Made by a program: the position numbers and the translations under genes | Shown here: one piece after another, positions 4,490 to 37,468 of the stretch | Position numbering within the stretch: position 1 is the first letter of the stretch | Layout of the letters: every line of letters starts with the position of its first letter | NCBI GenBank assembly: GCA_041389765.1 | Contig: JAWKRE010000002.1 | Span: forward strand, 11,908 to 75,907 | Length of the DNA stretch: 64,000 nucleotides | DNA from: Polyangiaceae bacterium | Lineage (GTDB): Bacteria > Myxococcota_A > Polyangia > Polyangiales > Polyangiaceae | Direction of reading: 5' to 3' | Notes under the pieces: model-generated | Databases searched by the model: none | What the model was told of the DNA's origin: nothing | The model's input: only the letters and a program-made list of their open reading frames with translations

Positions 4490-4615
4490 CGCGGATCAAC
4501 CCCGCGGACTCAGGCTCAAGTTGCGGGGGGACAGATTGGATGTCGACTTGCTTCGCGGGAACAATCGGGCGGGGTCGGGCTCGAACTGCTCTTGAGGGAA
4601 GGAGTGGGGCGACCG

Positions 4616-5062: not shown

Positions 5063-5243
5063 GCAGTCGGCGGGAGGTCAGAGGAGGTCTTCGCCGCAGG
5101 TGACTTGCCAGGCGCGGAGAGTGGCTATTTCGGCGGCGAGGTGCTCGTAGCGGGGGCGGAGGGATTCGTCGGAGTCGGGCGGCGTCCTTGCGGATCTGGA
5201 GGTAGCGAACCATCGACTTCCAGGGACGCGCGGGGGAGAGGGG

Positions 5244-6779: not shown

Positions 6780-9697
6780 TTGAGGAGGCCCTCGGCGTAA
6801 CGCTTGACGGCCTCTTTCAATGCGGGGTCGACGGGGCCGGAGAGGCCGTCCATGACGCGCTTGCGGAAAGCCTCGGGGCCCTTGTGCTTGTCCTTGCCGG
6901 GGATGTCGGCCTTGCCGCCGGGGGGGCGGTGGTCGCCCTCCTGATCGCCGCGGGGGCGCTCGCTGTTGCCGTCGTCGTCCTTGCGGCCCTGGGCCATTTC
7001 GAGGGCGCGCTGGGCGATCTCCTGGTGCTTCTTGCCGGCGTCGCCGTCGCCCTCTTGCAGGGCGCGCTGGGCGTCGCGCATGGCGCGCTCGGCGTCGTTC
7101 AGGCGGTCGAGGGTGGCGTCGTCGAGGGTGCGATCGCCGCGGCGGGCTTTTTCGCCGAGCTCGCGGGCGCGCTGGGCGAGCTTCTCTTCGTCCTTGCTGG
7201 ACCGGGAGAGCTCCTCTTTGGCGCGCTCGCGGGCGGACTGGCGGAGCTTTTCGAGGGCCTCTTCTGCCCATTTCAGCTCGCTTTCGAGGGCCTCGGCGGC
7301 CTTGCCGGCGCGCTCGCCGGTGGTCTCTTCGAAGAAGCCGCCGTCTCCGCCCTTGCGCTTGGACTCCTTGAGGGACTTCAAGGCTTCTCGGCCGCGCTCG
7401 ACGGCCTCCTGGAGGTTCTGGCTGTCGAGGGAGCCGGCCATTCCTTCGGCCTCCTGGCGGCCGGCGGCGGCCTCGGACTCGGCGGTGTCGGGGCGGCCTT
7501 GCTTGGGGAGGCCCTGGACGGCCTCGCGGATGCTCTTGGCGTGCTCGCGGGCGGCGTCTTTGAGGGACTCGCGCTCTTCGCGCTCGGCGCGGTCGAGGGC
7601 CTCGGAGACCTCGTTCATCTCGGTGGCGTGGTCGCGGGCGAGATCTTCGAGGTCCTGCTCGTTGCGGGCCTGTTCGGCGTCGGCGTCGGAGGCCTCGCTG
7701 GGGTTCATGGAGGGGGGGCCGCCGGACTCGACTCCTCCGCCGCCTCCGCCGGAGAAGCTGGGGTCGGGCTTGCGGAGGCGATAGGCGAGATCCTGGGCGG
7801 CGAGCTCTGTGTGCTTGTAGTCCGAGGCCTTGCGGGCGCGGTCGATGCGGCGGAGATCGGAGGCGACGATCTCGCCGAGATCGAGGCCGAGGTCGCCGAG
7901 CTTGAGGAGCTGTTTGCCGCCGGCGTCGAGGACGTCGTAGGAGGCGCCGAGCCGGATGGTGGCGCTCTCGGTGTCCATGCCGAGGGCGAGGGCGCCTGCG
8001 GCGAGGGCGGCTTCGTCGGCGACGACGGCGAGGCGCTTGGCGACAGTGCGTGTGTCGCGGACGCCGAGGGCGCGGACTCCGCCGTCGAAGGCGAGGAGGA
8101 CATCCTCTGTCTCGTGAAGGAGCTTGTCGTAGGTGGCTTGTGAAGGGGCCTTTGTGAAGGACTCAAGGGCCTTGTCGAGGAGGCTCCACTGGCCGCGGGC
8201 GAGGGCCGTCATGCGGCTGTTGGGGGGGAGGCCGGCGAAGGTCTTTCCGAGGGCCTCCATGGTGAGCTTGCGGGCCTCCTGTTGCGCGGTGGTCTCGGGG
8301 GCGATGAGGTCGCGGGGCTTCTTGGGGTCGAACTTGGAGTCGAGGCGGCGGGCGAGGAGATCGGTGAGGCGGTCTCGGGCTTTCAGGAGCTCGGCGTAGC
8401 GGAGGGCTTCGGGCTCGCCGGCTTGCGGGAGGACGACGATGACGGCCTCGCTCTTTCCCCACTTGGGGCCGCTGACCTCGTCGTTGTCGCGGGCCTCGAC
8501 GCGGACCTCGACAGGGGCGTAGGTCTTGCGGAAGAAGGGGTCGTTGGCGCCGAGCTGGTAGCTGCCTTTGTCGGTGCGGGTGTCGGTGCCGGGGCGGGAG
8601 AGGATGCGGCGCTCCTCGCGGGTGCCGGCGCGCATGGAGAGGACGACCTCGCGGAGGCCGTGATCGTCCTCGGCTTCGTAGGTGAGCTGGACGGTGGGCT
8701 CGTCGAGGATACGGACTGTGCGCGGGGCGCCGTCGACGCGGACCACGGGGGGGGCGTCGGGGATGGAAGTGACGATCTGGAGATCGGCCTGGGGGACGCG
8801 GATGTCGCCGAAGGCTGCGACGACGCGGAGGCGGGCGCTGTCGGTGAGGGGGAAGTGGACGACGAGGCCGCCGTCGCCGTCGCCGACGAAGGCTGCTTCG
8901 GTGACGCCGTCGGTGAGGAGGAGCTTGCGGCCGTCGTGGACGGGGGTCCCGCGGACGGCGATGCGCGTGCCGCGGGGGAGGGCTGTGGGGGCGAAGGGGT
9001 TCAGGAGCTCTTCGGGCTCGTGGAGGTACGCCGGGGGGGTGGCGCTCATGGAGACGTCGTCGAGCCAGAAGAGGGGGAGGGGGGCGGTGCCGTTGCGGGC
9101 GGCGAGGACGTCGATGCCTTCGACGATGCGGAAGGGGTCGGACGTGACGAGGGCGAGGGCGGTGGTGGCGATGGCGAGGGCGGCGATCGACCAGCCGGTG
9201 GCGAGGCTCGCGGCGCGGGCGCGGATGCGATCGAGCGGGGCGCGATCGAGGAGGCGGCGGAGGTGGAGGGCGGCGAGCTCGGGGGAGCCGGCGTCGTCGG
9301 TGCGGGCGGTGCGCTCGGCGAGGGTGAGGGCGCGGAGGGTGGCGGCGCCGAGCTGAGGGTCGGCGCGGCCGACGGTGCCGAGGATGGTGCGGCGAGCGTC
9401 GCGGCGGCGGCGGTGGGCGACGACGGCGCGGACGAGGATGGAGGCGAAGAGGAGCGCGAAGAGGGCGGCGGCGGCGGCGCGGGCGTTCTGTGTGCCGAGG
9501 CGTGCGAGGAGCGCGGCGCCTGTGAAGACGAGGGCGGCGAGGGCGAAGAGGAGGCGGCGGACCGAGGGGGTGAGCTCGGTGTCCCAGGCGGCGCGCAGGC
9601 GAAGGAGCCAGTCGGCGGGGATCGCGGGAGCGGGGAGCGCGGCGCGAGGATCGGGCGACGGTGCGGGGGAGGCGCCGTCTGGCTGGGCTGCGGCCAT
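6776..9697 (-). CDS. large membrane protein with a long C-terminal charged coiled-coil region (DUF4175-like)
   Basis: 973-aa ORF with N-terminal TM helices, a central beta-rich region and a ~350-aa Glu/Lys/Arg/Ala-rich C-terminus (EALESELKWAEEALEKLRQSARERAKEEL...). Translationally coupled to the metallopeptidase gene. The family assignment is from memory and tentative. Confidence 0.6.
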   Translation of the reverse strand: MAAAQPDGASPAPSPDPRAALPAPAIPADWLLRLRAAWDTELTPSVRRLLFALAALVFTGAALLARLGTQNARAAAAALFALLFASILVRAVVAHRRRRDARRTILGTVGRADPQLGAATLRALTLAERTARTDDAGSPELAALHLRRLLDRAPLDRIRARAASLATGWSIAALAIATTALALVTSDPFRIVEGIDVLAARNGTAPLPLFWLDDVSMSATPPAYLHEPEELLNPFAPTALPRGTRIAVRGTPVHDGRKLLLTDGVTEAAFVGDGDGGLVVHFPLTDSARLRVVAAFGDIRVPQADLQIVTSIPDAPPVVRVDGAPRTVRILDEPTVQLTYEAEDDHGLREVVLSMRAGTREERRILSRPGTDTRTDKGSYQLGANDPFFRKTYAPVEVRVEARDNDEVSGPKWGKSEAVIVVLPQAGEPEALRYAELLKARDRLTDLLARRLDSKFDPKKPRDLIAPETTAQQEARKLTMEALGKTFAGLPPNSRMTALARGQWSLLDKALESFTKAPSQATYDKLLHETEDVLLAFDGGVRALGVRDTRTVAKRLAVVADEAALAAGALALGMDTESATIRLGASYDVLDAGGKQLLKLGDLGLDLGEIVASDLRRIDRARKASDYKHTELAAQDLAYRLRKPDPSFSGGGGGGVESGGPPSMNPSEASDADAEQARNEQDLEDLARDHATEMNEVSEALDRAEREERESLKDAAREHAKSIREAVQGLPKQGRPDTAESEAAAGRQEAEGMAGSLDSQNLQEAVERGREALKSLKESKRKGGDGGFFEETTGERAGKAAEALESELKWAEEALEKLRQSARERAKEELSRSSKDEEKLAQRARELGEKARRGDRTLDDATLDRLNDAERAMRDAQRALQEGDGDAGKKHQEIAQRALEMAQGRKDDDGNSERPRGDQEGDHRPPGGKADIPGKDKHKGPEAFRKRVMDGLSGPVDPALKEAVKRYAEGLLK

Positions 9698-9744
9698 CGG
9701 GCGAAGCGTAGCCGGACGGCGCGTGGGGTCCAGAGACGAAAGAG

Positions 9745-10380
9745 CTACTTGTGGGCGACGCCGCGGATGGTGGGGCGGGTGAAGAACATGGCTTTGTGCA
9801 TGCTCTCGCGCTGCTCGCGATCGATGGTGAAGCCGGCGGCGCGGATGGTGTCGGCGGTGCGGCGGGTGAGGTGGCAGTTGCCGGCGAGGTGCTTCCAGGC
9901 GGGCTCGATGCGGCGCTGCCAGGCGAGGCGATCGGGGCGGTCCTCGGCGGCGACGTGCTCGAGGTAGATGAGCTTGCCGGCGGGGCGGAGGACGCGGCGC
10001 ATCTCGGCGAGGGAGCGGGCCGGATCAGGGACGGAGCAGAGGACGAGGGTGCTGACGACGGCGTCGAAGGTGCTGTCGGGGAAAGGGAGGGCGTCGGAGG
10101 GGGCGGGGGTGATGTCGAGAGCGCGGGAGGGGGAGGGGGCGCGGGCGCGCTCGTGCCAGACACGCTCGTGCAGCTTGAGGCGCATGTGACGGTCGGGCTC
10201 GGTGAGGACCAGTCGCGTGACGGCGCGGGGGTAGTGCGGGAGGTTCGCGCCGGTGCCGGCGCCGATTTCGAGGACCTCGCCGGCGAGATCGCGGAGGAGA
10301 TCGGCGCGCCACTCGACGAGGCAGGCCTCCTCCACGTTCGACATGAAGCGGTCGTAGATGAGGGACATGAACCAGGCCAT
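9745..10380 (-). CDS. class I SAM-dependent methyltransferase (Methyltransf_11/UbiE-like)
   Basis: Motif I VLEIGAGTGAN, then LDITPAPSDALPFPDSTFDAVVSTLVLCSVPD...RVLRPAGKLIYLEH, typical of small-molecule methyltransferases. Confidence 0.8.
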   Translation of the reverse strand: MAWFMSLIYDRFMSNVEEACLVEWRADLLRDLAGEVLEIGAGTGANLPHYPRAVTRLVLTEPDRHMRLKLHERVWHERARAPSPSRALDITPAPSDALPFPDSTFDAVVSTLVLCSVPDPARSLAEMRRVLRPAGKLIYLEHVAAEDRPDRLAWQRRIEPAWKHLAGNCHLTRRTADTIRAAGFTIDREQRESMHKAMFFTRPTIRGVAHK

Positions 10381-10574
10381 GGGGGCGCTCCGCGAGAAGG
10401 TGCGTGTCAGGCGCTCAGGGTGTCACCGGCTGTGGGATGAAGGGACTGGAATATTGTGCGCGGAATGCGTTCGAGCGCGCAGTGAATTCGGGCTGCGCGG
10501 GATGTCGTACCTGACGTGACGAGAAGGTTGCCGTTGCGGGTAGCGCTCGCGCGCGTCGTGATACGTTCGCTACC

Positions 10575-11786
10575 ATGGCGAAGCGCACCGGCTCCTCGGC
10601 GCACGGCGAACGTGCGACGCGCGGAATGGAGCGGAAGGATGTCGCGGGTGAGCGGACCGCTGCGGCGAAGACGCTGAAGAAGCGGCCGTCGCGCGAGGCT
10701 CCGCCGGGGAGCAGCGCGCGCGCGAAACGAGCGACGAAGGGGGGGCCGCGGGCTGCGGTCGCGCCTCCGAAGAGCACGGCGCAGGCGAAGCGAACGAAGA
10801 CGGCGGGGGCGCGCGCAGAGGCTTCGAGAGAGGCGCGCGTGGAGCCTGCGCGACGGAAGAAGATGGAGACGAAGATCGCTGTGCGCGGGGTGGGCGCGCG
10901 CGACGAGGAGCCTGCGGTGGAGACGGCGCGCGTGCCGCCGCGCATTCCGACGCCGCCGGCGCTGGCGGTGGCTCCGCGATCGATGGAGCTGGAGTGGACA
11001 GGGGATCCGGGGGGGTCGACGCCGCCCGCGGAGGCGACGTTCGATCGGTGGGTGCGGCGGGGGGATGAGCTTCTGCGGCGGCTCGCGGAGCACGGGGCGG
11101 CGAGCCACGAATACCGGGTGAACCTGGAGGACGGGCGGTTCTTCTGGGTGGATGAAGGTGGGCGCGTTTCGGCGGAGGCGAAGGCGCGGCTCGTGTGCTC
11201 GTACGTGCCGCAGACAGCGTCGCTCGCGATGGGGTGGGCCGATGGGGCGACACGGGCTGTGTCGACTCCGCGCGTGATCGGGATGGCGGCGGAGATCGAT
11301 GACATCGACGAAGAAGGGGCGTGGCGGATCGCGATGCACGCGGCGGAGGTGGCGGGGGCGCAATACCTCTATCGGGTGCGATCGGCGGCGCAGTCGCTGT
11401 TCCTTGCGCTGTCGGGGCTGACGTTCACGCCGAGCTTGCGGTCGTATGTGCCGTCGACGCCGGTGGCGATGGTGCTGGCGACGCTGGAAGAGGCGCGCGA
11501 GGCGACGCTGCTGGGGGCGGAGCCGGTGGATACGTTGCGTGCGCGGCTGTCGGCGGCGGGGGCCTCGCTGATGCAGCAGGCGGAGTTCGCGCACCGGGAT
11601 ACGGACTGGGTGGCGCGGCTGGTGCGCTCGGGGAAGAGGCTGGGGACGCTGGCGGAGCGGCTTCCGCGGCCGACGTTTCACAGCGTGGCGAAGGGGGGGG
11701 CGACGCTGTGGCTCGATCCGCACCTCGCGAGCGATCTGGTGGAGTCGATCGAGATGCTCGAAGAGGAGTGGCGGCAGTTCGCTTGA
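10575..11786 (+). CDS. hypothetical protein with a Lys/Arg/Ala-rich (histone-tail-like) N-terminus and a globular C-terminal domain
   Basis: 403-aa ORF. Its C-terminal 250 aa are non-repetitive (HEYRVNLEDGRFFWVDEGGRVSAEAKARLVCSYVPQTASLAMGW...). Preferred over the overlapping 1076-aa Arg/Pro/His-rich antisense ORF (10407..13637). Confidence 0.45.
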   Translation: MAKRTGSSAHGERATRGMERKDVAGERTAAAKTLKKRPSREAPPGSSARAKRATKGGPRAAVAPPKSTAQAKRTKTAGARAEASREARVEPARRKKMETKIAVRGVGARDEEPAVETARVPPRIPTPPALAVAPRSMELEWTGDPGGSTPPAEATFDRWVRRGDELLRRLAEHGAASHEYRVNLEDGRFFWVDEGGRVSAEAKARLVCSYVPQTASLAMGWADGATRAVSTPRVIGMAAEIDDIDEEGAWRIAMHAAEVAGAQYLYRVRSAAQSLFLALSGLTFTPSLRSYVPSTPVAMVLATLEEAREATLLGAEPVDTLRARLSAAGASLMQQAEFAHRDTDWVARLVRSGKRLGTLAERLPRPTFHSVAKGGATLWLDPHLASDLVESIEMLEEEWRQFA

Positions 11787-11909
11787 GCGCGGGTGTGCGG
11801 GGGGCGCGCTGTGGGCGGTGGGCGGTGCGCGCGGTGTGGGCGGTGGGCGGTGCGCGCGGTGGGGTGAGCGGGCTTGGCCTCGATGGGGGTGGAGGGTAGG
11901 CTCGGGCGC

Positions 11910-12809
11910 ATGCGGGTCCCTACCTTGCTGCGCTGCGCGGTCCTGGCTTCGGCCGTGGGGGCGGCTCTCGTGCCGGGCGCGATCGCGCCACGTCCTGCGT
12001 TCGCTCAGGCGGCGAAGGGGACGGTGACGCCGCTCATCCAGCGGGCGGCGGAGCTGTTCGACGATCAGCAATACGAGGAGTCGATCCAGACGCTGTCGGC
12101 GGCGCTGCTCCGGCCGGGATCTTCGATGAAGGAGAAGATCGAGATCTATCGGCTGCTCGCCTACAACTACATCACGCTGAAGCGGAACGATGAGGCCGAC
12201 GCGGCGGTGCGCGGGCTGTACGTGCTCGACGAGTCGTTCACGCTGCCGGTCACGGAGTCGCCTCGGTTTCGAGACTTCTTCGAGGCGACGCGGAAGAAGT
12301 GGGTCGAGGAAGGGAAGCCGGGGAAGAACGAAGGGACGGGCGAGACGGCGGCAGAGGCGCCGGTGAAGATCGCGCACACGTCGCCGGCGCAGGGGGCGCG
12401 GGGGATGACGATCAAGCTGACGGGCTCGATCGATGATGCGAACGGGCGCGTGCGAGGGGTGCAGCTCTATTACCGGATCGGGACGAAGGGGAAGTTTCAC
12501 ATCGTGGCGGGGACGTACACGCTCGGGAAGTTCAACACTTCGATCCCGGGGAAGGAGGTCGCGCCGCCGCTCGTGGAGTACTACCTGGAGGCGGTCGACA
12601 ACGGCGGGCTGCCGGTGGCGTCGCGCGGGGATGCGGGGGCGCCGCTGCGCATCGTGGTGCCGGAGCCGGAGCAGAACAGCGTGGTGAGGAGCCCGGCGCT
12701 GTGGGTGCCGCTCGGCGTGGTCGTGGTGGGCGTGGCGGTCGGCGTGCCGGTGGGGATGTTCCTGTTCGGGCAGAAGCAGACGGCGACCGTGAAGGTGGGC
12801 GTGAAGTAA
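11910..12809 (+). CDS. secreted hypothetical protein with an N-terminal TPR-like region and a C-terminal TM helix
   Basis: Signal peptide MRVPTLLRCAVLASAVGAALVPGAIAPRPAFAQA. A TPR-like stretch (EESIQTLSAALLRPGSSMKEKIEIYRLLAYNYITLKRNDEA). C-terminal hydrophobic helix LWVPLGVVVVGVAVGVPVGMFLF. The stop abuts the prmA GTG start. Confidence 0.55.
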   Translation: MRVPTLLRCAVLASAVGAALVPGAIAPRPAFAQAAKGTVTPLIQRAAELFDDQQYEESIQTLSAALLRPGSSMKEKIEIYRLLAYNYITLKRNDEADAAVRGLYVLDESFTLPVTESPRFRDFFEATRKKWVEEGKPGKNEGTGETAAEAPVKIAHTSPAQGARGMTIKLTGSIDDANGRVRGVQLYYRIGTKGKFHIVAGTYTLGKFNTSIPGKEVAPPLVEYYLEAVDNGGLPVASRGDAGAPLRIVVPEPEQNSVVRSPALWVPLGVVVVGVAVGVPVGMFLFGQKQTATVKVGVK

Positions 12810-13751
12810 GTGGCGAGCGCGAAGGGCGGGGGGAGGATTGTCAAGAAAAAAACGACGGGGACGGGGGCGCCTCGCTATCCGTTCGTGGCGGTGGACGTCC
12901 GTGAAGCGTATGCGGATGAAATTGCTGCGCTTTTGTTTGCGAATGGGGCGAGCGGGGTCGAGGAGCGGGACGAGCAGACGCTGCGGCGCGGGCCGGGGGG
13001 CGGGATCGTGACGGTGGTGGGGGCGTTCGACTCGCACGCGGGGGCGCGGGCGGCGATGAAGGCGGTGAAGACGTCGCGGCCGATCTTGCGGCCTCGGCTG
13101 GAAGAGGTGGTGGGGGATGCGTGGCGGGACGCGTGGAAGGAGCACTTCGCCCCGTTTGCGCTGACTCCGCGCGTGATGATCGCGCCGCCGTGGTCGGTGC
13201 CTGTGCCGCCGGCGGGGGTGCGGCTGCTGGTGCTGGAGCCGGGGCGGGCGTTCGGGACAGGGCTGCACGCTTCGACCTCGCTCGTGGCTTCGCTGCTCGA
13301 TGAACGGGCAGGTGGGCTGCGCGGGGCGGTGGTGCTGGATGTGGGGACGGGGAGCGGGATCCTGGCGCTGATGGCGCTGGCGCTGGGGGCGGAGCGGGCG
13401 GTGGGGCTCGACGTGGATCCGGAGGCGGTGGAGGTGGCGCGCGAGAACGCGGCGCGCAACGGGTTCGAGGGGAGGCTGACGGCGCGCGTGGGGTCGGCGG
13501 GGGACGCGGGGGGGCGGTATCCGGTGGTGCTCGCGAACATCGAGGCGCGGATCCTGGGGCCGATCGCGGAGGAGCTCGCGGCGACGGTGGCGCCGGGGGG
13601 GACGCTCATCGTGTCGGGGGTGCTCGCGAACGAGCATGACGCGATGGTGGCGCGGTACGAAGGGCTGGGGATGCGGCGCGTGAAGACGGTGCAGCGCGGG
13701 GAGGCTGCGGGCGAGGGGTGGGTGGCGATCGCGTTCGAAGCGCGGCGATGA
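12810..13751 (+). CDS. prmA: ribosomal protein L11 methyltransferase
   Basis: The PrmA C-terminal SAM-binding region matches (VLDVGTGSGILALMALALGAERAVGLDVDPEAVEVARENAARNG...VVLANIEARIL...LIVSGVL). GTG start immediately after the upstream stop. Confidence 0.85.
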   Translation: MASAKGGGRIVKKKTTGTGAPRYPFVAVDVREAYADEIAALLFANGASGVEERDEQTLRRGPGGGIVTVVGAFDSHAGARAAMKAVKTSRPILRPRLEEVVGDAWRDAWKEHFAPFALTPRVMIAPPWSVPVPPAGVRLLVLEPGRAFGTGLHASTSLVASLLDERAGGLRGAVVLDVGTGSGILALMALALGAERAVGLDVDPEAVEVARENAARNGFEGRLTARVGSAGDAGGRYPVVLANIEARILGPIAEELAATVAPGGTLIVSGVLANEHDAMVARYEGLGMRRVKTVQRGEAAGEGWVAIAFEARR

Positions 13752-14501
13752 GCGCGCGGGGTGAGCGACGGCTGCGGGTTCCGGTGGAGCTCTGCGGGGC
13801 GGGGGAGATCGAGCTGTCGAAGGAGGCGGCGGTGTATGTGGCGCGCGTGCATCGGCTGGGCGAGGGGGACGCGTTCACGGCGTTCGATCCGGAGCGGGCG
13901 GTGAGGCGGAGGCGGTGGTGGTGTCGGTGGGGCGGGGGGCGCGCGGTGACGGTGCGGGCCGGTGAGCTGCGGGGGCGAGCGTGCGGGCGCCTCGGGCGGT
14001 GACGCTGGTTCAGGCGGTGGGGAAGGGGGACAAGATGGATGCGATCGTGCGCGATGCGACGGAGCTGGGGGCGACGCGCGTGGTGCCGGTGGTGGCGGAG
14101 CGGAGCGTGGTGCGGGCGGAGGATGTGGCGTCGCGGGCGGCGCGGTGGAGGCGCATCGCGATCGAGGCGGCGCGGCAGTGTGGGCGGGGGGATGCTCCGC
14201 GCGTCGATGCGCCGGTCGTGCTGGGCGAGGCGCTGGCGGGGCTTCCGGTGGAGACGGGGCTGGGGGTGTGCCTCGTGCCGGGGGCTGCGCCGGGGCTCGG
14301 GGATGCGCTGCGGGGGCTCGCGGCGGGGGCTTCGGTGACGATCGTGGTGGGGCCGGAGGGGGGCTGTCGGCGGGGGAGATCGAGGCGTGTGAGGCGCGGG
14401 GGCTGGTGAGCTACGGGCTCGGGGAGCTGGTGTTGCGGACGGAGACGGTGTGCGCGGCGGTGCTGGGGGCGCTGTTGCTTCTGGGGCAGCGCGCGGGGTG
14501 A
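13748..14501 (+). pseudogene. rsmE: 16S rRNA (uracil1498-N3)-methyltransferase RsmE, reading frame broken at least three to four times by single-base deletions
   Basis: RsmE-like sequence is spread over three frames: the N-terminus (MSARGERRLRVPVELCGAGEIELSKEAAVYVARVHRLGEGDAFTAFDPERAV), then EAEAVVVSVGRG, then RAVTVRAGELRGRA, then PRAVTLVQAVGKGDKMDAIVRDATELGATRVVP...VTIVVGPEGG, and finally LSAGEIEACEARGLVSYGLGELVLRTETVCAAVLGALLLL. The junctions traced in detail are consistent with single missing G's in G runs, e.g. gagggggg where gag ggg ggg is needed. Confidence 0.7.
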
Positions 14502-14614
14502 GGTGAGCGATCGGGGAGCGGAGCGCGCGGGCGGGCGGCGCTGGGCGGGTGGCCCTCCCGGGGTGCGGTGAGCGGTGCTCGGGGTGAGGAAGGTGGCGAC
14601 CAATCGGCGCGCGG

Positions 14615-16214
14615 TTGCTACCCTCGGGCGGTCCCGTGGCCCACGCAGCGAGAAAGAGCGAAGGAGACGCCGGGAAAGGGCGGCGCGGTCCGACGATCGA
14701 GCTGTCGCGGGTGACGCGGCGGTTCGGGCGGACGGTGGCGGTGGACGGGGCGTCGGCGCGGTTCGAGCCGGGGGAGATCCATGCGGTCATCGGCGAGAAC
14801 GGGGCGGGGAAGTCGACGCTGCTCAAGCTCGCGGCGGGGGTGCTGGCGCCGTCCTCGGGGGAGGTGAAGATCGCGGGGGAGCTGCTCGTGCCGGCGGAGC
14901 CGCGGGAGGCGGCGCGGCGCAATGTGCTGATGGTGCATCAGCATTTCATGCTGGTGGGGGCGTTCACGGCGCTGGAGAACCTGATGCTCGGGAACGAGCC
15001 GGCGGGGGCGGGGGGGGTGCTCGATGAGGGGCGGGCGCGACGCGAGGTGGAGGCGCTGGCGGAGCGGACGGGGCTGACGGTGCCGCTCGATGCGCAGGTG
15101 GATGCGCTGGGGGTGGGGGACAAGCAGCGGCTGGAGATCCTGCGCGTGCTGCACCGGGGGGCGCTCGCGATCTTGCTGGATGAGCCGACGGCGGTGCTCA
15201 CACCGCAGGAGGCGGCGGATCTGTATGCGACGCTGCGCGCGCTGGCGGAGGAGGGGCGGACCATCGTCGTGGTCACGCACCGGCTCGATGAGGTGGTGCG
15301 GTTCGCGGATCGCGTCACGGTGATGCGGCGCGGGCGCACGGTGATGAGCCGGGCGCTCGATCGGGCGGGGGGGGCGAGCGCGGAGGAGCTGACGCGGGCG
15401 ATCATGGGGCAGGAGCCGCCGCCTCGGTTTGCGCCGCCCGAGGTGGCGGGGACGCGCCTGTTGCGCTGGAGGTGAAGGGGCTGGCGTACACGGACGCGTG
15501 GGGGCTCCGCAGGCTCGATGGGGTGAGCTTCGATGTGCGAAGGGGGAGATCGTCGGGATCGCGGGGGTGGAAGGGAACGGGCAGCGCGAGCTCGTTCATG
15601 CGGTGGCGGGGCTGATCCCGAACGCGCACGGGCTGGTGAAGGTGGCCGGGCGACAGATGCCGTTCAAGCTCGGCGAGGCGGACGCGGTGCGGATGCGGCG
15701 GCCGGTGTTGCGGGTGGTGCACGAGGACCGTCACGTGGAGGGGCTGCTGCTGGATGCGCCCGTGTCGGACAACCTCGTGCTCGGGCAGCTCGAAGGGCTC
15801 GCGCCGGGGGCAGAGCGGGCGGCGGTGGCGCGGCGGATCGATTCGTTCGGGGTCGCTCCGAGCGATCCTGCGCGGCGGGCGGGGGAGCTGTCAGGAGGCA
15901 ATCAACAGAAGGTGGTGGTGGCGCGGGCGCTCGATGGGTTCCTCCACGAAGGGGCGCCGCCGGGGAGCGCGGTGGTGCTCGCGCAGCCGACGCGCGGGGT
16001 CGATGTGGGGGCGGCGGCGGTCATCCACGCGGCGATCGGGCGGGCGGCGGCGGCGGGGCTCGGCGTGCTCATCGTGAGCGCGGATCTCGCGGAGCTGCGG
16101 CTCGTGTGCCACCGGCTGCTGGTGCTGCACAAGGGGCGGATCGTGGCGGAGGTGTCGCCGTCGGCTCCGGAGGAGAAGATCGGTCGGGCGATGCTCGGTC
16201 TGGAGGCGGCGTGA
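14615..16214 (+). pseudogene. ABC transporter ATP-binding protein with two nucleotide-binding domains (BMP/sugar-type), two apparent frameshifts near 15455-15545
   Basis: NBD1 has Walker A GENGAGKST, signature LGVGDKQRLEI and Walker B ILLDEPTA. NBD2 has GEIVGIAGVEGNGQ, LSGGNQQKVVVARAL and VLAQPTRGVDV. The linker APVALEVKGLAYTDAWGLRRLDGVSFDVRRG sits in a third frame. One junction is a G5 run where G6 is needed. The gene stop overlaps the permease GTG. Confidence 0.7.
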
Positions 16215-17563
16215 GCGTGTCGGTGGGCGCGGCGGGGGGCGGATCGCCGGCGCGGGGCGGATCGCCGGCACCGGGGGCGCGGCTCGCGCGGGTGAAGGAG
16301 CCGGCGCTGGTGATCGCGATCGTGATCGCGGGGCTGTGGATCCTGTTCAACCTGATCTCGTTCGCGTTCGCGGAGGCGCCGCTCGCGACGCTGGGGCGGG
16401 CGTTCGATGGGACGTGGGGGACCTCGTACGGGATCGGGCAGGTGCTGTTCAAGGCGACGCCGCTCGTGTTCACGGGGTACGCGTTTCACATCGCGCAGCG
16501 CGCGGGGCTGTTCAACATCGGGGCGGAGGGGCAGCTCGCGCTCGCGAGCCTTTGCGGCGGGGCGTTCGCGGCGTGGTTGCCCGCGGGGACGCCGGCGCCG
16601 GTCGCGCTGGTGCTGGTGCTCGGGGTGGGGGCGGCGGTGGGCGCGGCGGTGGCGGCGCCGCCGGCGGTGATGCGCGCGCGGCTCGGGGTCCACGAGGTCA
16701 TCAGCGGGATCATGATGAACCGGGTGGTGGACGTGCTCGTGCCGTTCACGCTCGCGACGGTGATCGGGGCCTCCTCGTTGCGGACGGCGGACGTGGCGAA
16801 GGGGGCGGCGCTGCCTCGGCTCGATGTGGTGTTCGGCTCGCTCGCGGGGAGCGCGGCGTCGTTCGCGTTTCCGGCGTCGGTGGTGCTGGTGGTGGGGCTG
16901 CACTTCTGGCTCATGCGCTCGCGGGTGGGGCGCGAGATGGCGTGGGTCGGCGTCAACCCGCAGGCGTGCCGCGCGGAGGGGGTGCCGGTGGGGTGGCGGC
17001 TCGTGCTGGCGATGCTGCTCTCGGGGGCGTTCGCGGGGCTGGGGATGAGCGCGACGGTGCTCGGGTACAAGGGGTACTTCGAGATCGGGCTGGGGTCGGG
17101 GGCGGGGTTCGCGGGCATCGCGGTGGCGCTGCTCGGGCGAGGCAACCCGGCGGGGATCGTGGCGGCGGCGATCTTCTTCGGGACGCTGGAGCAGGCGGGG
17201 CTCGCCATCAACGCGCGCGTGCCGAAGGAGGCGATGACCGTGCTGGAGGCGTTCGCGATCGTGTTCGTGTCGGCGGCGGGGCGGTTCGCGCGGGCGGGGG
17301 ACGCAGGGGGTCAGTCTGGGGGAGATAGTCAGTCCGGGGGAGAGGGGCAGTCTGGGGGAGATGGTCAGTCCGGGGGAGAGGGTCAGTCTGGGGGAGATGG
17401 TCAGTCCGCGGGAGATGGTCAGTCCGCGGGAGATGGTCAGTCTGGGGAGGGGGCAGCGCAGGAAGACGGGGCTGGACAACCCCATTCGAGACAAGGCGAC
17501 GGGGCCTTGAAAGCGGGCCATATTCCGGGAGATGGGGAGTCTGCGAAGGAGGGGGCGTCGTGA
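16211..17563 (+). CDS. ABC transporter permease (BMP-family/branched-chain type) with a C-terminal Gly/Asp/Gln/Ser pentapeptide-repeat tail
   Basis: GTG start overlaps the ATPase stop. Multi-TM permease sequence (LFNIGAEGQLALASLCGGAFAAWL...). The C-terminus is (GDGQS)n encoded by the 15-nt tandem repeat. Confidence 0.8.
   Translation: MSVSVGAAGGGSPARGGSPAPGARLARVKEPALVIAIVIAGLWILFNLISFAFAEAPLATLGRAFDGTWGTSYGIGQVLFKATPLVFTGYAFHIAQRAGLFNIGAEGQLALASLCGGAFAAWLPAGTPAPVALVLVLGVGAAVGAAVAAPPAVMRARLGVHEVISGIMMNRVVDVLVPFTLATVIGASSLRTADVAKGAALPRLDVVFGSLAGSAASFAFPASVVLVVGLHFWLMRSRVGREMAWVGVNPQACRAEGVPVGWRLVLAMLLSGAFAGLGMSATVLGYKGYFEIGLGSGAGFAGIAVALLGRGNPAGIVAAAIFFGTLEQAGLAINARVPKEAMTVLEAFAIVFVSAAGRFARAGDAGGQSGGDSQSGGEGQSGGDGQSGGEGQSGGDGQSAGDGQSAGDGQSGEGAAQEDGAGQPHSRQGDGALKAGHIPGDGESAKEGAS
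17305..17450 (+). repeat. 15-nt tandem repeat about 9 copies (encodes GDGQS/GEGQS) at the 3' end of the first ABC permease gene
   Basis: ggtcagtc(t/c)ggggga(g/t)a(t/g) units, seen directly. Confidence 0.85.
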
Positions 17564-18471
17564 GTGGCGTGCTCTCGCTGACGATGGTGGCGGAGACACT
17601 CCGCATCTCGGCGCCGTATGTGTGCGCGGCGGTGGGGGGGATCTGGGCGGAGCGGAGCGGGATCATCCAGATCGGGCTGGAAGGGGTGCTGCTCACGAGC
17701 GCGTTTGCGAGCGTGGCGGCGGCGCACGCGACGGGGAGCGCGGCGGTCGGGCTCGCGACAGGGGTGATGGCGGGGGCGCTGCTCTCGCTGGGGCACGCGC
17801 TGCTCGTCGAGCGGGCGAAGGTGCATGCGATCGTGAGCGGGATCGCGCTCAACTTGCTGGCCTTCGCGGCGACGCGGCTCGCGCTGCGGGGGCTGTATGA
17901 CAGCGCGTCGAACTCGCCGGGGATTGAAGGGTTTCGGTTCGGGCCGGTGGGGGCCGGCGGGGTGGCGCTGCTCGGGCGCGTGCTGGCGGATCCGGTGACG
18001 ATCGCGGCGATCGCGGTGACGGCGGCGACGCCCTGGCTGTTTCGACGGACACGGTTCGGGCTGCGCGTGCGGGCGGCGGGGGAGAACCCGGATGCGCTGG
18101 GGGCGGTGGGGCTCTCGGTGACGAAGATCCGGTGTCTGGCGCTGCTTGTTTCGGGGGCGGCGTGCGGGCTCGGCGGGGTTCACCTGGCGTTCGATCAGCA
18201 CCGGTTCGAGTCGGGGATGTCGAACGGGCGCGGGTTCATCGCGCTGGCGGCGGTCGTCGTGTCGGGGTGGCGCGCGGGGTGGGCGGCGGTGGCGTGCCTG
18301 GCGTTCGGCGTGCTGGAGGCGCTGCAGATCGTGCTGCAAGATGAGCTGCGGTCGTCGCGGGCGGGGGATCTCGTGCAGCTCCTTCCGTATGTGGCGACGC
18401 TGGTGGTGCTCGGGTTCGCGGCGGGGCGGAGTCGGGCTCCGAGGGGGCTCGGCGGGGGCATCGCAGGCTGA
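17560..18471 (+). CDS. ABC transporter permease (second permease of the same transporter)
   Basis: GTG overlaps the previous stop. Motifs IQIGLEGVLLTSAF and ENPDALGAVGLSVTKIRCLALLVSGAACGLGG are typical of BMP-family inner-membrane permeases. Confidence 0.8.
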   Translation: MSGVLSLTMVAETLRISAPYVCAAVGGIWAERSGIIQIGLEGVLLTSAFASVAAAHATGSAAVGLATGVMAGALLSLGHALLVERAKVHAIVSGIALNLLAFAATRLALRGLYDSASNSPGIEGFRFGPVGAGGVALLGRVLADPVTIAAIAVTAATPWLFRRTRFGLRVRAAGENPDALGAVGLSVTKIRCLALLVSGAACGLGGVHLAFDQHRFESGMSNGRGFIALAAVVVSGWRAGWAAVACLAFGVLEALQIVLQDELRSSRAGDLVQLLPYVATLVVLGFAAGRSRAPRGLGGGIAG

Positions 18472-18642
18472 GGTGCGGGTGCGGGTGCGGGCGTGTGGCG
18501 GGCGCGGGCGCGAGCCTGAGGTCGCGAGTGAGCCATGAGGTGCGTTGACGGCGGGGGCGGGTGCGCCTACGCCGCGGGGGTGCGCTGCTCGTACGGAAGA
18601 AGGCCGCTCCAGCGCATTGCTCGCGGGGGGATCGCGCTCGCG

Positions 18643-19188
18643 ATGGCGGCGATCGCAGCGGGCTCGATGGGGTGCGCGGAGCTTCCGGCGAATGTGCCGC
18701 GCGCGGAGGGGTTCGATGCGCGGCAGCTCAGCGGGGGGTGGCACGTGCTGGCGAGCAACTTCCCGATGTGGCTCGAAGGCAACAAGAGCGAGCCGAACTT
18801 CATCTATCGGGTGCTGCCGGGGGAGGAGCCGGTGCGGCTCGATGACATCGTGGCGTACACGGAGTCGGGGAGGCGCGAGACGATCGAGGGGACCGACACG
18901 CAGGATCCACAGTCGCCGGCGCACTTCACGTGGCGCGGAAAGGGGCTCTTGGCGGCGTTTTCGAGCGACTGGGTGGTGGTGGCGCGCGGGCCGGAGGATC
19001 GGTGGCTGGTGCTCTACTTCACGAAGACGCTGGCCACGCCGGAGGGGGTGGACGTGATCGCGCGGACGCCGGAGCTGTCGCCGGAGGATCGGGAGAGCGT
19101 CGAGAAGTTGCTGGCTAACCATTCGTTTTTGAAAGAGAAATCGAAGGGAATCCTGTGGCTCGGGCGCGCTCGGCCGGTGGGTCGCTGA
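18643..19188 (+). CDS. lipocalin-like lipoprotein (Blc-like)
   Basis: Lipobox AAIAAGSMGCAE. GGWHVLAS...FTWRGKGLLAAFSSDWVVVARGPEDRWLVLYFTKTLATPEGVDVIART resembles the bacterial lipocalin fold. Confidence 0.55.
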   Translation: MAAIAAGSMGCAELPANVPRAEGFDARQLSGGWHVLASNFPMWLEGNKSEPNFIYRVLPGEEPVRLDDIVAYTESGRRETIEGTDTQDPQSPAHFTWRGKGLLAAFSSDWVVVARGPEDRWLVLYFTKTLATPEGVDVIARTPELSPEDRESVEKLLANHSFLKEKSKGILWLGRARPVGR

Positions 19189-19245
19189 GCAGGGGGCGCG
19201 CGTGAGGAGACGCGAGGCGCGAGGCGGGGGCGGCGCTCGGCGGGG

Positions 19246-22086
19246 GTGCGCTGGCCGGGAGGTCCGTCGATAATGCCGGGCATGCTCCTTCCCACGGGCG
19301 CGTCGTTCGCCCGGTACACCGTGGAGGCCAGCCTCGGCGGAGGTGGGATGGGGCACGTCTACCGGGCGTTCGACACGCAGCTCGAACGGCGGGTGGCGCT
19401 GAAGATCCTGCACGTCGACGCGAAGGCCGGGAAAGAAGGGGCGGCGCGCGCGGCGATCCTGCGCGAGGCGCGCGCGGCGGCGGCGCTCAACCACGTGAAC
19501 GCGGTGACGGTGTTCGAGGTGGGCGAGCACGAAGGGGTGCCGTTCCTCGCGATGGAGCTGGTGACGGGGGCGTCGCTGCGAAACATCATCGGGCGGCCGG
19601 ATGTGCCGCTCGGGCGGAAGCTGCGGTGGCTGCTCGGGATCGCGGAGGCGCTTTCGGCGGCGCACGCGGCGGGGATCGTTCACCTCGACGTGAAGCCGGA
19701 GAACGTCATCGTGCGCGTGGACGACGTGGTGAAGGTGCTGGACTTCGGCATCGCGCGGCGGCGGACGATCGATCCGGAGACGTTCCTGCCGGCCGAGGCG
19801 GGGGATCACGATCTCGCGATGCTCCAGACGGTGAACAACGCGGGCGGGGCGATCGTGGGGACGCCGCGGTACATGGCGCCGGAGCAGGTGGGCGGGAGCA
19901 CGCTCGACGGGCGGACGGATCAGTTCGCGTGGGGCGCGGTGGCGTACGAGCTGCTGTCGGGGCAGAGCCCGTGGCCACCAGGGGAGGACCTGTATGCGCT
20001 GCTGTCGGCCATCGTGCGGACGAAGCCAGCGCCGCTGCGGTCGCTGCGCTCGGATGTGCCAGAGAGCGTGGCGGCGATCGTGGAGCGCGCGCTGTCGAAG
20101 CCGCGGGAGGACCGGTTCGGGTCGATGGCGGAGGTGGCGGCGGCGATGGGGGCGGCGATGGCGGAGCTGTCGCCTTCGTCGCTCATGTCGGCGGTGCGCT
20201 CGGATCTGCTTTCGTTGCCGATGGCGTCGAGCACGGCGCCGACGCTGGGGGCGGACGACGTGAACGCGGTCACGGTGGAGGCGGCGGCGATCGAGGTGTC
20301 CGCGCGGGTGTCGGACCCAGGTCGGGTGTCGGGGCCGCCTTCGGTGCGGGTCGCGGAGGGGCCGGCGACGCAGCGCTCGGGCGAGGTGGTGCCGGAGCGC
20401 GAGGCGGTCGGGGAGCGGCGGGCGCGGGCTGGCTTCTGGCGGGCGGCGCAGCTCCTGATGGTGGCGGCGGCGGCGAGCGCGGCGGTGTGGTTCTTCCTCA
20501 CACGGGGGAGGCCGAGCGAGGTGGCGAGCGGCGAGACGATCGCGAACGGGTGCAGCGAGAAGGCGCAGCGCACCTACAGCTCGGGGACGCGCGCGCTCCG
20601 AAACGGGGACTGGCAGCAGGCGCGCAAGCACTTTCAGGAGACGGTGACGGCGGATCCGGAGTGTGCGGCGGCGCACGCGCGGCTCGTCGTCATCGGCTAC
20701 TGGACCGATCCGCCGTCGCGCACGCGGGACGAGCTGCGGCGCGCGACCGATCTGCGCGAGGGCCTGTCGGAGCGGGATCGCGATCTGCTCCATTGCTACG
20801 AGTCCGTGCTGTGGAAGGCGCCGCCCGATGAGCGCGAGTTCGCGGCGTGCCTCGACGCGCTGTCGGAGGCGCGGCCCCGCGACGCGGAGCTGGCGTACAT
20901 CGCGAGCGATTTCTCGGAGTCACCGGCGCGCATGCGCGAGCTGGCGCAGCGGGCGCTCGACATCGACCCGCAATATTCGGATGCGTGGCAGGGGCTGGCC
21001 GTCGCGCTCAGCCTGGAAGAGAAGGAGACCGAGGCGCTGGACGCGCTGCAGAAGTGCGTCGACAAGACGGTGACCTCGCTCGACTGTCTCGCGCAGCGCG
21101 CGCTGCTCCAGCGGCGGATGGGGCAGTGCACCGAGCTGGAGGGGACGGCGCGGATCTGGATGACGCGCAGCCCGCAGGCGACAGGGGCGCACTACACGCT
21201 GGCGTCGGCGCTCGCCGCGCAGGGCCGGCCGCGCGCGCTCGTGGAGGAGGCGCTCGTCGCGCGATGGGCGCACCTCGCGGGCTCGTCGGACGCTCGCGAG
21301 GAGCCGCTGGAGCACGCGGCGCTGGACGCGCTCTTCGGCGACCTCACGGGGGCCCGCGAGCGCGCGCAGGAGCTGTTCGAGCGGTCGAAGGGGGCGGCCG
21401 ACGCCGATGAGCGGATCAACGCGGCGCTGTGGCTCCTCGATCTGGCGGTGGAGCTCGGGGCGACGGAGGCCGCGGGCGCGCTGGCGGAGGATCTGTGGAA
21501 CCGCAAGGCGGCGTGGGACTCGGCGTCGCGCCACAAGGGGTTCAACGCGAAGGGCGCGACGTTCGAGCCGCAGCTCCTCCGCGTGCTGTCGATCGCGAAG
21601 CGCATGGCGGGCGAGGCGATCGCGAAGGAGCAGAAGCGGTGGATCGCGTCGGTGCAGGCGGTGAGCGCGCCGGGAGCGGAGGGGCTGTGGGTGCTGGGGT
21701 CGGCGATCCCGGCGGAGACGCCCGAGGCGGCGGCGGAGGCCGTGAGGTCGATGCCCGCGTCCATCGTGAGCTCGTGGAGCTGGACGGCGAAGCTCCCCGG
21801 GCTCGTCACGTTCGCGTACGCGGGGCGCGCGCTGCTCTTGGCGGGCCGGACGGACGACGCGGTGCGGCTCCTTCGGCGGGCGACGGCGGCGTGCGCGGCG
21901 CTGGAGGATCCGGTGCTGCACACGCAGGCGCACCTGTGGCTGGGGCAGGCGCTCGCGAAGAAGGGGGAGCGCGAGGCGGCGTGTGCGGCGTTCTCGGTGG
22001 TGACAGCGCGGTGGGGGCAGGCGGCGGAGTCGCTGTCGGCGCGCGCGGCGGCGGACGAGTCGAAGGCGCTCGGCTGCGCTCCGTGA
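19246..22086 (+). CDS. serine/threonine protein kinase with a long C-terminal TPR-like/helical repeat domain
   Basis: Hanks kinase motifs: GGGGMGHVYRA, VALKIL, HLDVKPENVIV, DFGIA, GTPRYMAPE. About 600 aa of helical repeat sequence follow. 946-aa intact ORF. Confidence 0.85.
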   Translation: MRWPGGPSIMPGMLLPTGASFARYTVEASLGGGGMGHVYRAFDTQLERRVALKILHVDAKAGKEGAARAAILREARAAAALNHVNAVTVFEVGEHEGVPFLAMELVTGASLRNIIGRPDVPLGRKLRWLLGIAEALSAAHAAGIVHLDVKPENVIVRVDDVVKVLDFGIARRRTIDPETFLPAEAGDHDLAMLQTVNNAGGAIVGTPRYMAPEQVGGSTLDGRTDQFAWGAVAYELLSGQSPWPPGEDLYALLSAIVRTKPAPLRSLRSDVPESVAAIVERALSKPREDRFGSMAEVAAAMGAAMAELSPSSLMSAVRSDLLSLPMASSTAPTLGADDVNAVTVEAAAIEVSARVSDPGRVSGPPSVRVAEGPATQRSGEVVPEREAVGERRARAGFWRAAQLLMVAAAASAAVWFFLTRGRPSEVASGETIANGCSEKAQRTYSSGTRALRNGDWQQARKHFQETVTADPECAAAHARLVVIGYWTDPPSRTRDELRRATDLREGLSERDRDLLHCYESVLWKAPPDEREFAACLDALSEARPRDAELAYIASDFSESPARMRELAQRALDIDPQYSDAWQGLAVALSLEEKETEALDALQKCVDKTVTSLDCLAQRALLQRRMGQCTELEGTARIWMTRSPQATGAHYTLASALAAQGRPRALVEEALVARWAHLAGSSDAREEPLEHAALDALFGDLTGARERAQELFERSKGAADADERINAALWLLDLAVELGATEAAGALAEDLWNRKAAWDSASRHKGFNAKGATFEPQLLRVLSIAKRMAGEAIAKEQKRWIASVQAVSAPGAEGLWVLGSAIPAETPEAAAEAVRSMPASIVSSWSWTAKLPGLVTFAYAGRALLLAGRTDDAVRLLRRATAACAALEDPVLHTQAHLWLGQALAKKGEREAACAAFSVVTARWGQAAESLSARAAADESKALGCAP

Positions 22087-35882: not shown

Positions 35883-37304
35883 TCACGATCTCCCGCACCG
35901 CCTGCCGTCGCAGCTCCAGCAGCGCAGTCGTCGAAAGCAGCCCATGCTCCGGCGCCACGATCTCCCCGAGTCAGCGACTCCCCCACCCCGCGCATCGCCT
36001 CTTCGAACACCCTCCGCGCCAGACTCACAGAGCTCCGGCCGCTCCGAGAGCATCCACGAGAGCGCCCGCCACCCCAGCTCCGCGTGCCGCCCCTCCTCCT
36101 CCGCGATCCGCCCCATCGCGGCCCTCACCGCCCGATCCCCCACCATCCCCGCGATCGCCAGCGCCTCCGCCGCCGCCACCGTCTCCCCCACGCAGGCCTC
36201 GCGCACCAGCGCCGCCACGATCTCCGCCGGATCCGTCGCCGGCACCACCCCTGTCACCGGCAGCCCCCCCGGCCCCACCGGCACGCCTGAATACGCGCTC
36301 GCCAGCCCGTAGCAGAGCCGCGCATGCCCCGTCTCATCCATCATGGCCTGTTGCGTCGCCAGCAAGAGATGAGGCGGCGCCCCCATCGCCAGGAGCTCCA
36401 GCGAGAACCGCGCAAAGCTCCCGATGCTCGCGTGCTCCATCGCCCCCATCGCCGCATAATGCTCCGCCAGCGCCCCCCGCACCTCGGCAGTCAGCCCCGC
36501 AGTCTCCGGCGCCATCTCCCCACCTGCCCAGTCCTCCCGCGCACACCTCGGCGCGACCCGGAGGCTCCCCTCCGCGAACAGCGGCCGCCCGATCGTACAC
36601 GTCTGATCGTGACACTCCCACGCCTCCGCCGCCCCCGTCTTCGCGCACTGCTCCCCTGCTGGACAGTCCTTGTCGGCCAGGCAGGCCCCGCCCCCATCCT
36701 GACAGTACAGCCACCGACTCTTCCCGCACCCGTCATCATAGATCGACAGCCCGCACTCCGCCCCCGGGCAATCCTCGCCAGAGTGGCAATCTCCCGCCGT
36801 CACGCACACCGGCGACGACGCGCCATCCACCCCCGCGCACATGCAAGCTGCCCCCGCCTCGCAGTCCTCATCTGTCGCGCACTCGTAATAGCACCCGCAC
36901 CCCGTGATCGTCCCAGGCCCTTGATACGTGTAGTGCTGGCAGTGCCCGTTCGGCAGCGCCGTACAATCCGCGTCCGTCACACACTGCAGCTCTTCCTCGT
37001 TCCCCTCGCACGTCTGCGTCGCCGTCAGCTCACAGGTGACCTTCTTCTCCCGATAGATCCTCCCGTCATCGCACTGCACGAACCCGCTCTCCTCCCCGCT
37101 CGGCTGCAAGATCGCCGTCGCCCCATCGCACGCCGCGGCTCCCCCGCCGCTCCCCCCGTCCCCCCCGGTCCCCACATTCCCATTCCCCCCACAGGCCGAC
37201 ACCGACACCCCGATCGCCGCCAGCAGCGCCCCCCGAAACCCCGCAAAAGAAAGCGAATTCGCGCCCATCGACCCCACCAAGCGCACCCGTGAAAAGCTCG
37301 TCAT
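35883..37304 (-). CDS. lipoprotein with Cys-rich N-terminal domain and ferritin-like diiron C-terminal domain
   Basis: ATG at 37302-37304 with GGAGG upstream. Lipobox GVSVSACGG. About 30 Cys in the first 230 aa. Then ExxH/DExxH/EExxH motifs (MEHASIGSF, MDETGHARL, EEEGRHAELGW). The last ~40 aa look low-complexity, so a frameshift near 36010 is possible. Confidence 0.55.
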   Translation of the reverse strand: MTSFSRVRLVGSMGANSLSFAGFRGALLAAIGVSVSACGGNGNVGTGGDGGSGGGAAACDGATAILQPSGEESGFVQCDDGRIYREKKVTCELTATQTCEGNEEELQCVTDADCTALPNGHCQHYTYQGPGTITGCGCYYECATDEDCEAGAACMCAGVDGASSPVCVTAGDCHSGEDCPGAECGLSIYDDGCGKSRWLYCQDGGGACLADKDCPAGEQCAKTGAAEAWECHDQTCTIGRPLFAEGSLRVAPRCAREDWAGGEMAPETAGLTAEVRGALAEHYAAMGAMEHASIGSFARFSLELLAMGAPPHLLLATQQAMMDETGHARLCYGLASAYSGVPVGPGGLPVTGVVPATDPAEIVAALVREACVGETVAAAEALAIAGMVGDRAVRAAMGRIAEEEGRHAELGWRALSWMLSERPELCESGAEGVRRGDARGGGVADSGRSWRRSMGCFRRLRCWSCDGRRCGRS

Positions 37305-37468
37305 CCTGAACCTCCACCCGGCAGGATAGCCTGTTTGGCGGCCCGGGTACCCTCCCGTCTCCAGATCGCCGCCCATCTCCAGGACTACCTGTCCCGCACA
37401 CCCCGCTTACCCATCCCGAAGCACATTCGTGATGGCGCCCCACCCCCGTTTCGAGCGACACTCCCCAC

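Follow-up and report, generated by a model that had tools for sequence, protein, structure and literature searches.

In the 64-kb window (the whole stretch of 64,000 nucleotides of Polyangiaceae DNA that was analysed), rsmE and the adjacent gene for a two-domain ABC transporter ATPase can be read only through changes of frame. The breaks amount to seven single-base deletions, of which rsmE has five and the ATPase gene the other two. They are very probably errors of assembly or consensus, in an organism that most likely has working copies of both genes.

The split frames were recognised by three-frame translation and by a tblastn search whose queries were the intact orthologues from L002, a related MAG. 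The pieces of rsmE lie, in order, in frames 2, 1, 2, 1 and 0 (coordinate modulo 3), and those of the ATPase gene in frames 2, 1 and 0. Insertion of one G after each of positions 13903, 13932, 13939, 13981, 14363, 15451 and 15546 gives an uninterrupted RsmE of 252 aa and an uninterrupted ATPase of 501 aa; adjustment of the run lengths alone thus returns full-length, conserved ORFs. All seven lesions are losses of one G, in runs of G4, G6, G6, G4 and G5 and in two GG pairs, and no insertion, stop codon or larger deletion is found among them in the window's copies of the two genes. An earlier, sequence-only reading of this DNA had ascribed each junction that it traced to one missing G, which holds for the entire set, and had called for two further frame hops in the ATPase gene, which correspond to the -1 lesions at 15451 and 15546. 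Its four rsmE junctions are likewise recovered, whereas its count of hops is too low: the junction after SVGRG comprises two adjacent deletions, so that the total for rsmE is five -1 lesions. An interpretation of this junction as a +1 event was rejected, since alignment to the conspecific contig and to homologues shows two adjacent -1 events. The features are collected in Table 1.

Table 1. Coordinates of the genes and frame-breaking lesions in the window. L001 is the matching contig of another assembly of this species.
Feature	Position	Strand	Description
prmA (ribosomal protein L11 methyltransferase)	12810..13751	+	intact; PF06325 E=5.3e-50
rsmE (16S rRNA m3U1498 methyltransferase family)	13748..14501	+	five single-base deletions
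Lesion 1	13903	+	lone G where GG is expected (ggtGagg); frame lost after FDPERAV
Lesion 2	13929..13932	+	G4 run; G5 in L001
Lesion 3	13934..13939	+	G6 run one base short; common to window and L001
Lesion 4	13966..14000	+	one base lost, most simply GCGGTG to GCGTG at 13981; common to L001
Lesion 5	14358..14363	+	G6 run one base short; inside the GPEGG/LS motif of the SPOUT domain
Two-NBD ABC transporter ATPase, sugar/nucleoside-importer type	14711..16214	+	two single-base deletions
Lesion 6	15448..15451	+	G4 run, G5 in L001; linker between the two NBDs
Lesion 7	15542..15546	+	G5 run, G6 in L001; just before the Walker A of NBD2 (GEIVGIAGVEGNGQ)
Two ABC permease genes, same operon	16211-17563, 17560-18471	+	intact
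Ferritin-like-domain gene	35883..37376	-	shifted at 3' end (codon scan, homologues, tblastn frames, alignment)

RsmE (YggJ in E. coli) is a SPOUT-class 16S rRNA m3U1498 methyltransferase, whose gene commonly adjoins prmA. In the window, the prmA stop overlaps the rsmE start (ATGA), and rsmE runs from an ATG at 13748 to a TGA at 14499-14501. The corrected protein matches the family models over its full length (PF04452, E=5.6e-39, 133.8 bits, cut-off 23.9; TIGR00046, 137.7 bits, cut-off 41). Its exact substrate is predicted from sequence, the equivalog-level models scoring below their cut-offs. The corrected RsmE is collinear, without internal gaps, with homologues that are up to 74% identical to it. 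A set of 11 homologues has 82 invariant columns, and the corrected protein retains 80 of these, with GKGDKMD, GPEGG and LRTETV included. The window gene differs from the known family only by its frame breaks in the deposited sequence.

The ATPase gene shows ABC_tran matches on both halves, and the corrected product matches models of two-NBD importer ATPases from end to end; the best of these (NF047930, E=4e-102) nevertheless falls under that model's cut-off. Its real start probably lies upstream of 14711, at an in-frame TTG at 14615 or GTG at 14633. Elsewhere the gene is intact, as a single ORF of 502 aa in L001 and as one of 514 aa in L002. The two permease genes of the operon have BPD_transp_2 and NCBIfam permease matches, and the codon scan described below places no frame switch in them.

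An exact-protein look-up of PrmA led to contig JAWKRI010000159.1 (L001) of a second assembly of the species, GCA_041389705.1, whose PrmA is identical to that of the window. Of the four window genes used in such look-ups for further assemblies, PrmA returned this assembly only, and the other three returned nothing. L001 is 98.87% identical to positions 2834-19937 of the window (~17 kb) and carries the G's at 13903, 13932, 15451 and 15546, such that four of the seven lesions are absent from it. The fifth lesion is garbled differently, and the remaining two (13939 and ~13981) are common to both assemblies; two of the five rsmE lesions are thus shared, compared to none of the two in the ATPase gene. 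The rsmE of L001 is itself broken, by the two common lesions and by a -1 of its own at 14262.

At the first lesion, L001 reads GGTGGAGG, and the one added G restores EAEAVVVSVG. At the third, the window and L001 both need one extra base in order to give GAGGRAVTVR, as the closest homologues read. The fourth is bounded by the last stop of the downstream frame (13963-13965) and the next stop of the upstream frame (14000); the L001 sequence is identical here, and the homologue alignment calls for exactly one extra base. In the place of the fifth, L001 has a different garbled G-rich string, GTTGGGGGGGGGGCGGGTGGGGGGG, instead of the GPEGG codons. Beside the seventh, the codons of the two assemblies differ only synonymously (CGA AGG versus CGG CGG).

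From 13000 to 14195 (1.2 kb), the window and L001 show no substitutions at all, only the G indels at 13903 and 13932. A paired T insertion and A deletion at 14216/14218 in the BLAST alignment was dismissed as merely two substitutions. Elsewhere, the indels between strains that fall inside genes have lengths divisible by three (3 nt at 15370, 18 nt at 16264-16272 and 3 nt at 42967), and the remaining indels between the window and the sister assembly lie in intergenic DNA. Real strain differences such as these thus follow another pattern than the lesions.

A comparison with orthologous loci in related genomes, which the sequence-only reading had proposed, was made in one GTDB genome per species and covered at least about 80 prmA loci, with PrmA identities of at most 71% among the matches listed. 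In at least about 64 Polyangiales loci, rsmE directly follows prmA, as it does in the window, and occupies a single uninterrupted frame. The entire prmA-rsmE-ATPase-permease-permease block is intact in L002. An exact 32-mer scan of JGI metagenomes returned a single relative (contig L082, 76% identical), in which both rsmE and the ATPase gene are intact and the five-gene block is likewise complete. The single-frame orthologues in all of these loci speak against recoding, by which programmed ribosomal frameshifting or transcriptional slippage would bypass the breaks and leave the genes functional as written. Nothing points to such an arrangement beyond the position of some breaks in G runs. A 252-aa protein that depended on five separate corrections would be made in vanishingly small amounts, no slippery site is conserved, and the break sites differ between the two strains; the idea is extremely improbable.

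With the frames corrected, the window and L001 differ at 30 sites of the ATPase gene, 23 of them at third codon positions; 24 of the differences are synonymous and 6 non-synonymous (dN/dS 0.095). The corresponding ratio for rsmE is 0.34, and all nine of its non-synonymous differences fall at family-variable positions; the 118 positions with a conservation of 90% or more are all spared. Relaxed selection, with dN/dS near 1 and hits at conserved residues, is contradicted by these values. The rsmE ratio, together with the spared conserved residues, is unlike that of a gene which was dead before the strains split.

These data bear directly on two readings in which the deletions, or some of them, are genuine. 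In the first, both genes would be decaying, and all seven deletions would be real mutations of the sequenced strain. In favour of this, the deposited sequence does contain the lesions, and their local grouping might result from a relaxation of selection on a single operon. The ATPase gene, however, is intact in a 99%-identical strain, its dN/dS between the two strains is low, and the seven indels come with neither a stop codon nor the loss of any conserved residue. Bacterial pseudogenes that are real normally have more substitutions than indels; here, across part of rsmE, two indels stand against zero substitutions between the assemblies. Moreover, rsmE and the ATPase gene, though adjacent, have unrelated functions, and the transporter operon's permease genes are untouched. 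Decay of both genes is therefore very unlikely.

The second reading confines the loss to rsmE, as a real pseudogene by way of the two common frameshifts (13939 and ~13981), the other lesions being errors or very recent slips. Both of these lesions lie in sequence that is identical across two assemblies which otherwise show real-looking strain polymorphism, and a lesion common to both would also be the look of an ancestral, real frameshift. A search of a 5.8-billion-protein collection for an intact, near-identical RsmE returned none, the best match being 74% identical, so that no intact copy from the same species is on record. RsmE is dispensable in E. coli, and its loss could thus be tolerated. 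Against this reading stand the dN/dS of rsmE and the absence of changes at conserved codons, an avoidance that would be unexpected if the gene had already been dead in the common ancestor of the strains, as well as the retention of nearly all invariant residues and the intact gene in the relatives. In addition, both assemblies can be shown to contain indel errors that cluster in genes rich in G, as set out below. We consider this reading unlikely.

Genuine frameshift pseudogenes share with the present case the interrupted frames and, here, two lesions common to two strains. They differ from it in that the window's genes bear no sign of relaxed selection, no stops and no larger lesions, in an excess of indels over substitutions much too great for decay, and in the intact ATPase gene of the sister strain and the intact copies in the relatives listed.

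The distribution of frame breaks over the window was assessed with a codon-usage Viterbi model, trained on 17 long ORFs, which segmented the 64 kb into six coding frames and non-coding DNA. Of 150 single-base deletions that were simulated, the scan recovered 149; the remaining window is thus essentially free of uncompensated frameshifts, and the seven lesions in 1.64 kb form a true cluster. Same-strand switches away from stop codons occur in only three places: the rsmE/ATPase region, the 3' end of the ORF at 35883-37376 on the minus strand, and the in-frame TGA of a peroxiredoxin-like gene. Switches at 23549, 29292 and 63553 proved on checking to be ordinary gene boundaries and were discarded as lesions. 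The uneven spread of lesions noted in the sequence-only reading is thus borne out, but the window has one other lesion site, the ferritin-like gene, which is shifted near 35964-36030. In addition, the 587-aa ORF (26245-28008), which had been taken for one intact gene, is actually cmk (26252-27070) followed by a separate gene that reads in the frame of the ORF.

A further observation concerns an AhpC/TSA gene, in which a TGA (37877-37879) coincides precisely with the codon of the first Cys in a WCxxC motif; a hairpin lies 13 nt downstream of it. The combination of the TGA at a Cys position and the downstream hairpin makes this gene a selenocysteine candidate. Rfam and tRNA scans of the window returned nothing.

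The ferritin-like gene constitutes the second lesion site. In the window, GG is missing at 35964, and a further shift near 36025 is common to the window and to contig L083 of GCA_041389705.1, which is 99.4% identical to positions 32993-47174. All frame-breaking indel differences between L083 and the window fall within this one ORF. The L083 copy carries about ten further lesions (G deletions, A insertions and a 2-nt deletion), and one of its A insertions creates a TAG; at these lesions the window reads through, matching homologues such as MEHASIGSFARF. The comparisons with L001 and L083, taken together, show that each assembly has its own local indel clusters in G-rich genes.

Both lesion clusters lie in or beside patches that differ by several per cent between the assemblies, mostly at synonymous sites, and these patches are probably recombination tracts. 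The 600-nt segment 13801-14400 ranks first of 212 in G richness (GC 0.77, G fraction 0.548) and also in the number of G/C runs of at least 5 (13, compared to a mean of 3.5); the area of the ATPase lesions and the ferritin-like gene are likewise among the top segments for G richness or runs. The lesion region nonetheless contains only ~7% of all runs of at least 5 in the window. The density of G runs by itself thus fails to account for the clustering, and some additional local influence, for instance coverage or the mixing of strains, has to be assumed.

The window as a whole has ~71% G+C, and its plus strand is strongly G-rich over 2-24 kb. The strong GC skew tracks the DNA strand, independent of gene orientation: at 2-24 kb, the plus-strand genes have a G3 of ~0.65-0.76 and the minus-strand genes a C3 of ~0.74. 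The polarity of the skew flips near 25-26 kb and stays reversed through ~38 kb; no dif site of the proteobacterial type turned up when the surroundings of this switch were searched. The skew at third codon positions is 0.5-0.7 in the window's lineage, and the absolute skew at the syntenic position is below 0.06 in more than 60 related loci among those listed. The G richness of the rsmE region thus reflects a strand asymmetry that is specific to the lineage.

This setting invites a reading in which the G tracts are hypermutable: -1 slippage would be real and frequent, perhaps promoted by G-quadruplex-prone DNA on the 55%-G strand, and the two assemblies would have sampled different slipped alleles of a heterogeneous population. 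The lesions do lie at G runs in the G-richest DNA of the window, they differ between strains, and the lineage has an abnormal strand-specific enrichment in G. The runs, however, are short (1-6 G), far under the lengths of high-slippage contingency loci, and the window contains many further G5-G8 runs that bear no lesion; the A insertions and garbled bases of the sister assembly look like errors, unlike slippage. A phase-variable contingency locus has one long tract (typically 8 or more) in a surface or restriction-modification gene, as opposed to the seven separate short sites found here in a housekeeping methyltransferase gene and a transporter ATPase gene. Such slippage is an extremely unlikely source of the lesions. 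Similarly, it is very doubtful that the deletions are real products of an unusual mutational regime of the lineage, one also behind the extreme G enrichment of one strand; the corollary that G-tract-rich genes such as rsmE recurrently slip by -1, and are lost or heterogeneous in natural populations, is very improbable too.

Errors of assembly or consensus account best for these observations. The sequence-only reading had offered a locally low-quality stretch as one of two options, and this option gains support on three sides: every lesion is a -1 at G, and most of the lesions differ between assemblies, even within otherwise identical stretches; the sister assembly has a lesion cluster of its own in another gene, where the window is intact; and the genes are under purifying selection, their corrected proteins being conserved and of full length. 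According to two published reports, long-read consensus sequences keep homopolymer indels, which fragment gene calls unless polished, and the problem is worst in low-coverage metagenome bins (PMC9262707; PMC8812927). Like such long-read errors, the present lesions are single-base homopolymer indels with a bias to deletion, after whose correction the gene calls are whole, and most of their sites are not the same in the two assemblies of the species. Unlike those errors, which are spread along a contig, they form two short clusters, and GG pairs or short runs, as opposed to long homopolymers, account for three of the seven sites.

The underlying cause would be a read or consensus error, for example in long-read homopolymer length, combined with failed short-read polishing. 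Single G's would have been under-called in G runs and GG pairs, with the G-richest and G-run-densest part of the contig having escaped polishing, presumably where coverage or strain mixing was unfavourable. In the divergent patches, co-existing strains may have lowered the effective coverage and made polishing harder. The two lesions common to both assemblies would then represent the same systematic error made twice.

The host, an uncultured Polyangiaceae bacterium known from MAGs, would thus most likely possess an intact rsmE and an intact ABC ATPase gene. The rsmE, ATPase and ferritin-like gene calls, here and in GCA_041389705.1, are unfit as evidence of pseudogenes or gene loss, and the case shows that a frameshift found identically in two assemblies of one species may still leave both of them suspect. 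If the deletions were true, a free-living myxobacterium would have lost an rRNA methyltransferase that is nearly universal, which would be of mild interest.

The window and its conspecific assembly (GCA_041389705.1) differ by several per cent at 14195-16300 and at 35000-36000, with the flanking kilobases identical. Within these patches the changes are mostly synonymous (pS ~0.05), and on this alignment the patches look like recombination tracts between strains. Both overlap or adjoin the indel clusters, namely the single-G lesions in rsmE and the neighboring ABC ATPase and the site in the gene for a ferritin-like domain protein. The 3' end of the window copy of the latter is frame-shifted, with GG missing at 35964, and a further shift near 36025 is common to both assemblies. 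The conspecific copy, on contig L083, carries about ten indels and is annotated as a 352-aa fragment only. Four genes are listed in the table below.

Genes re-delimited or reinterpreted in the window
Gene	Position	Strand	Remarks
cmk	26252-27070		PF02224, E=3.5e-69; frame other than that of the 587-aa ORF
Gene following cmk	27066-28008		Frame of the 587-aa ORF itself
Ferritin-like-domain gene	35883-37376	-	Counterpart on L083, 9900-11330
AhpC/TSA-family gene	37467-38278	+	PF00578, E=5.6e-25 with Cys substituted

The start of the ABC ATPase is ambiguous. In the conspecific assembly the ATPase is annotated from a GTG (14711), upstream of which the conserved N-terminal strand PTIELSR is encoded. 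Upstream of 14711 the only in-frame starts are TTG 14615 and GTG 14633, and with either one the ORF would include a GAAGGAG Shine-Dalgarno-like motif. The ATG of the orthologue aligns with an AAA codon in the window. The first permease differs in length by 18 nt between the two assemblies at its N-terminus (16264-16272), with the frame preserved, and its C-terminal tail (17301-17563) is a low-complexity repeat (GGDSQSGGEGQSGGDGQSGG...), scored as non-coding by a codon-usage model trained on 17 long ORFs of the window.

The sequence-only reading had counted the 587-aa ORF at 26245-28008 among the intact long genes; this stretch instead comprises two genes in different frames, cmk and its downstream neighbor. 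The same codon model assigned long non-coding stretches to 1-1861 (where GC content is lower, 0.64), 4485-5250 and 43658-44623. A Pfam search with the ORF at 4434-5213 (- strand) gave no match, and the two assemblies differ by a single G at 4524, within one of the non-coding stretches.

The AhpC/TSA-family gene contains an in-frame TGA (37877-37879) at the exact position of the first Cys in FFRGSW[*]PYC. The TGA is a candidate selenocysteine codon rather than a nonsense mutation. A CCGCCG/CGGCGG hairpin with the loop AGUUG begins 13 nt past the TGA, and its fold is no better than that of shuffled sequence (z = -0.81). Neither tRNA-Sec nor sel genes were found within the 64-kb window.

A very strong GC skew extends over positions 2000-38000, at about +0.3 and then about -0.3, with the switch in polarity near 25000-26000. 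The skew tracks the strand of the DNA, irrespective of how the genes are oriented. At third codon positions, G3 is 0.64-0.76 in the + strand genes of 2-22 kb and C3 is 0.74-0.75 in the - strand genes of 5.2-10.4 kb, and the pattern is reversed at 26-38 kb. The window has only five AT-rich islands, and one of them (27994-28049) lies directly past the switch, in the intergenic gap upstream of the gene at 28094-28699; this island harbors the imperfect palindrome ATGAATTGATTAAACAAATTCAT. A search near the switch for a dif site of the proteobacterial type found none. Related Polyangiales have an absolute skew below 0.06 at over 60 syntenic loci, and only the nearest relatives share part of the skew seen here (+0.12 in locus L002 and -0.14 in locus L011). 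This pattern could mark a replication terminus or a rearrangement, in a lineage whose mutation bias is strand-asymmetric to an unusual degree.
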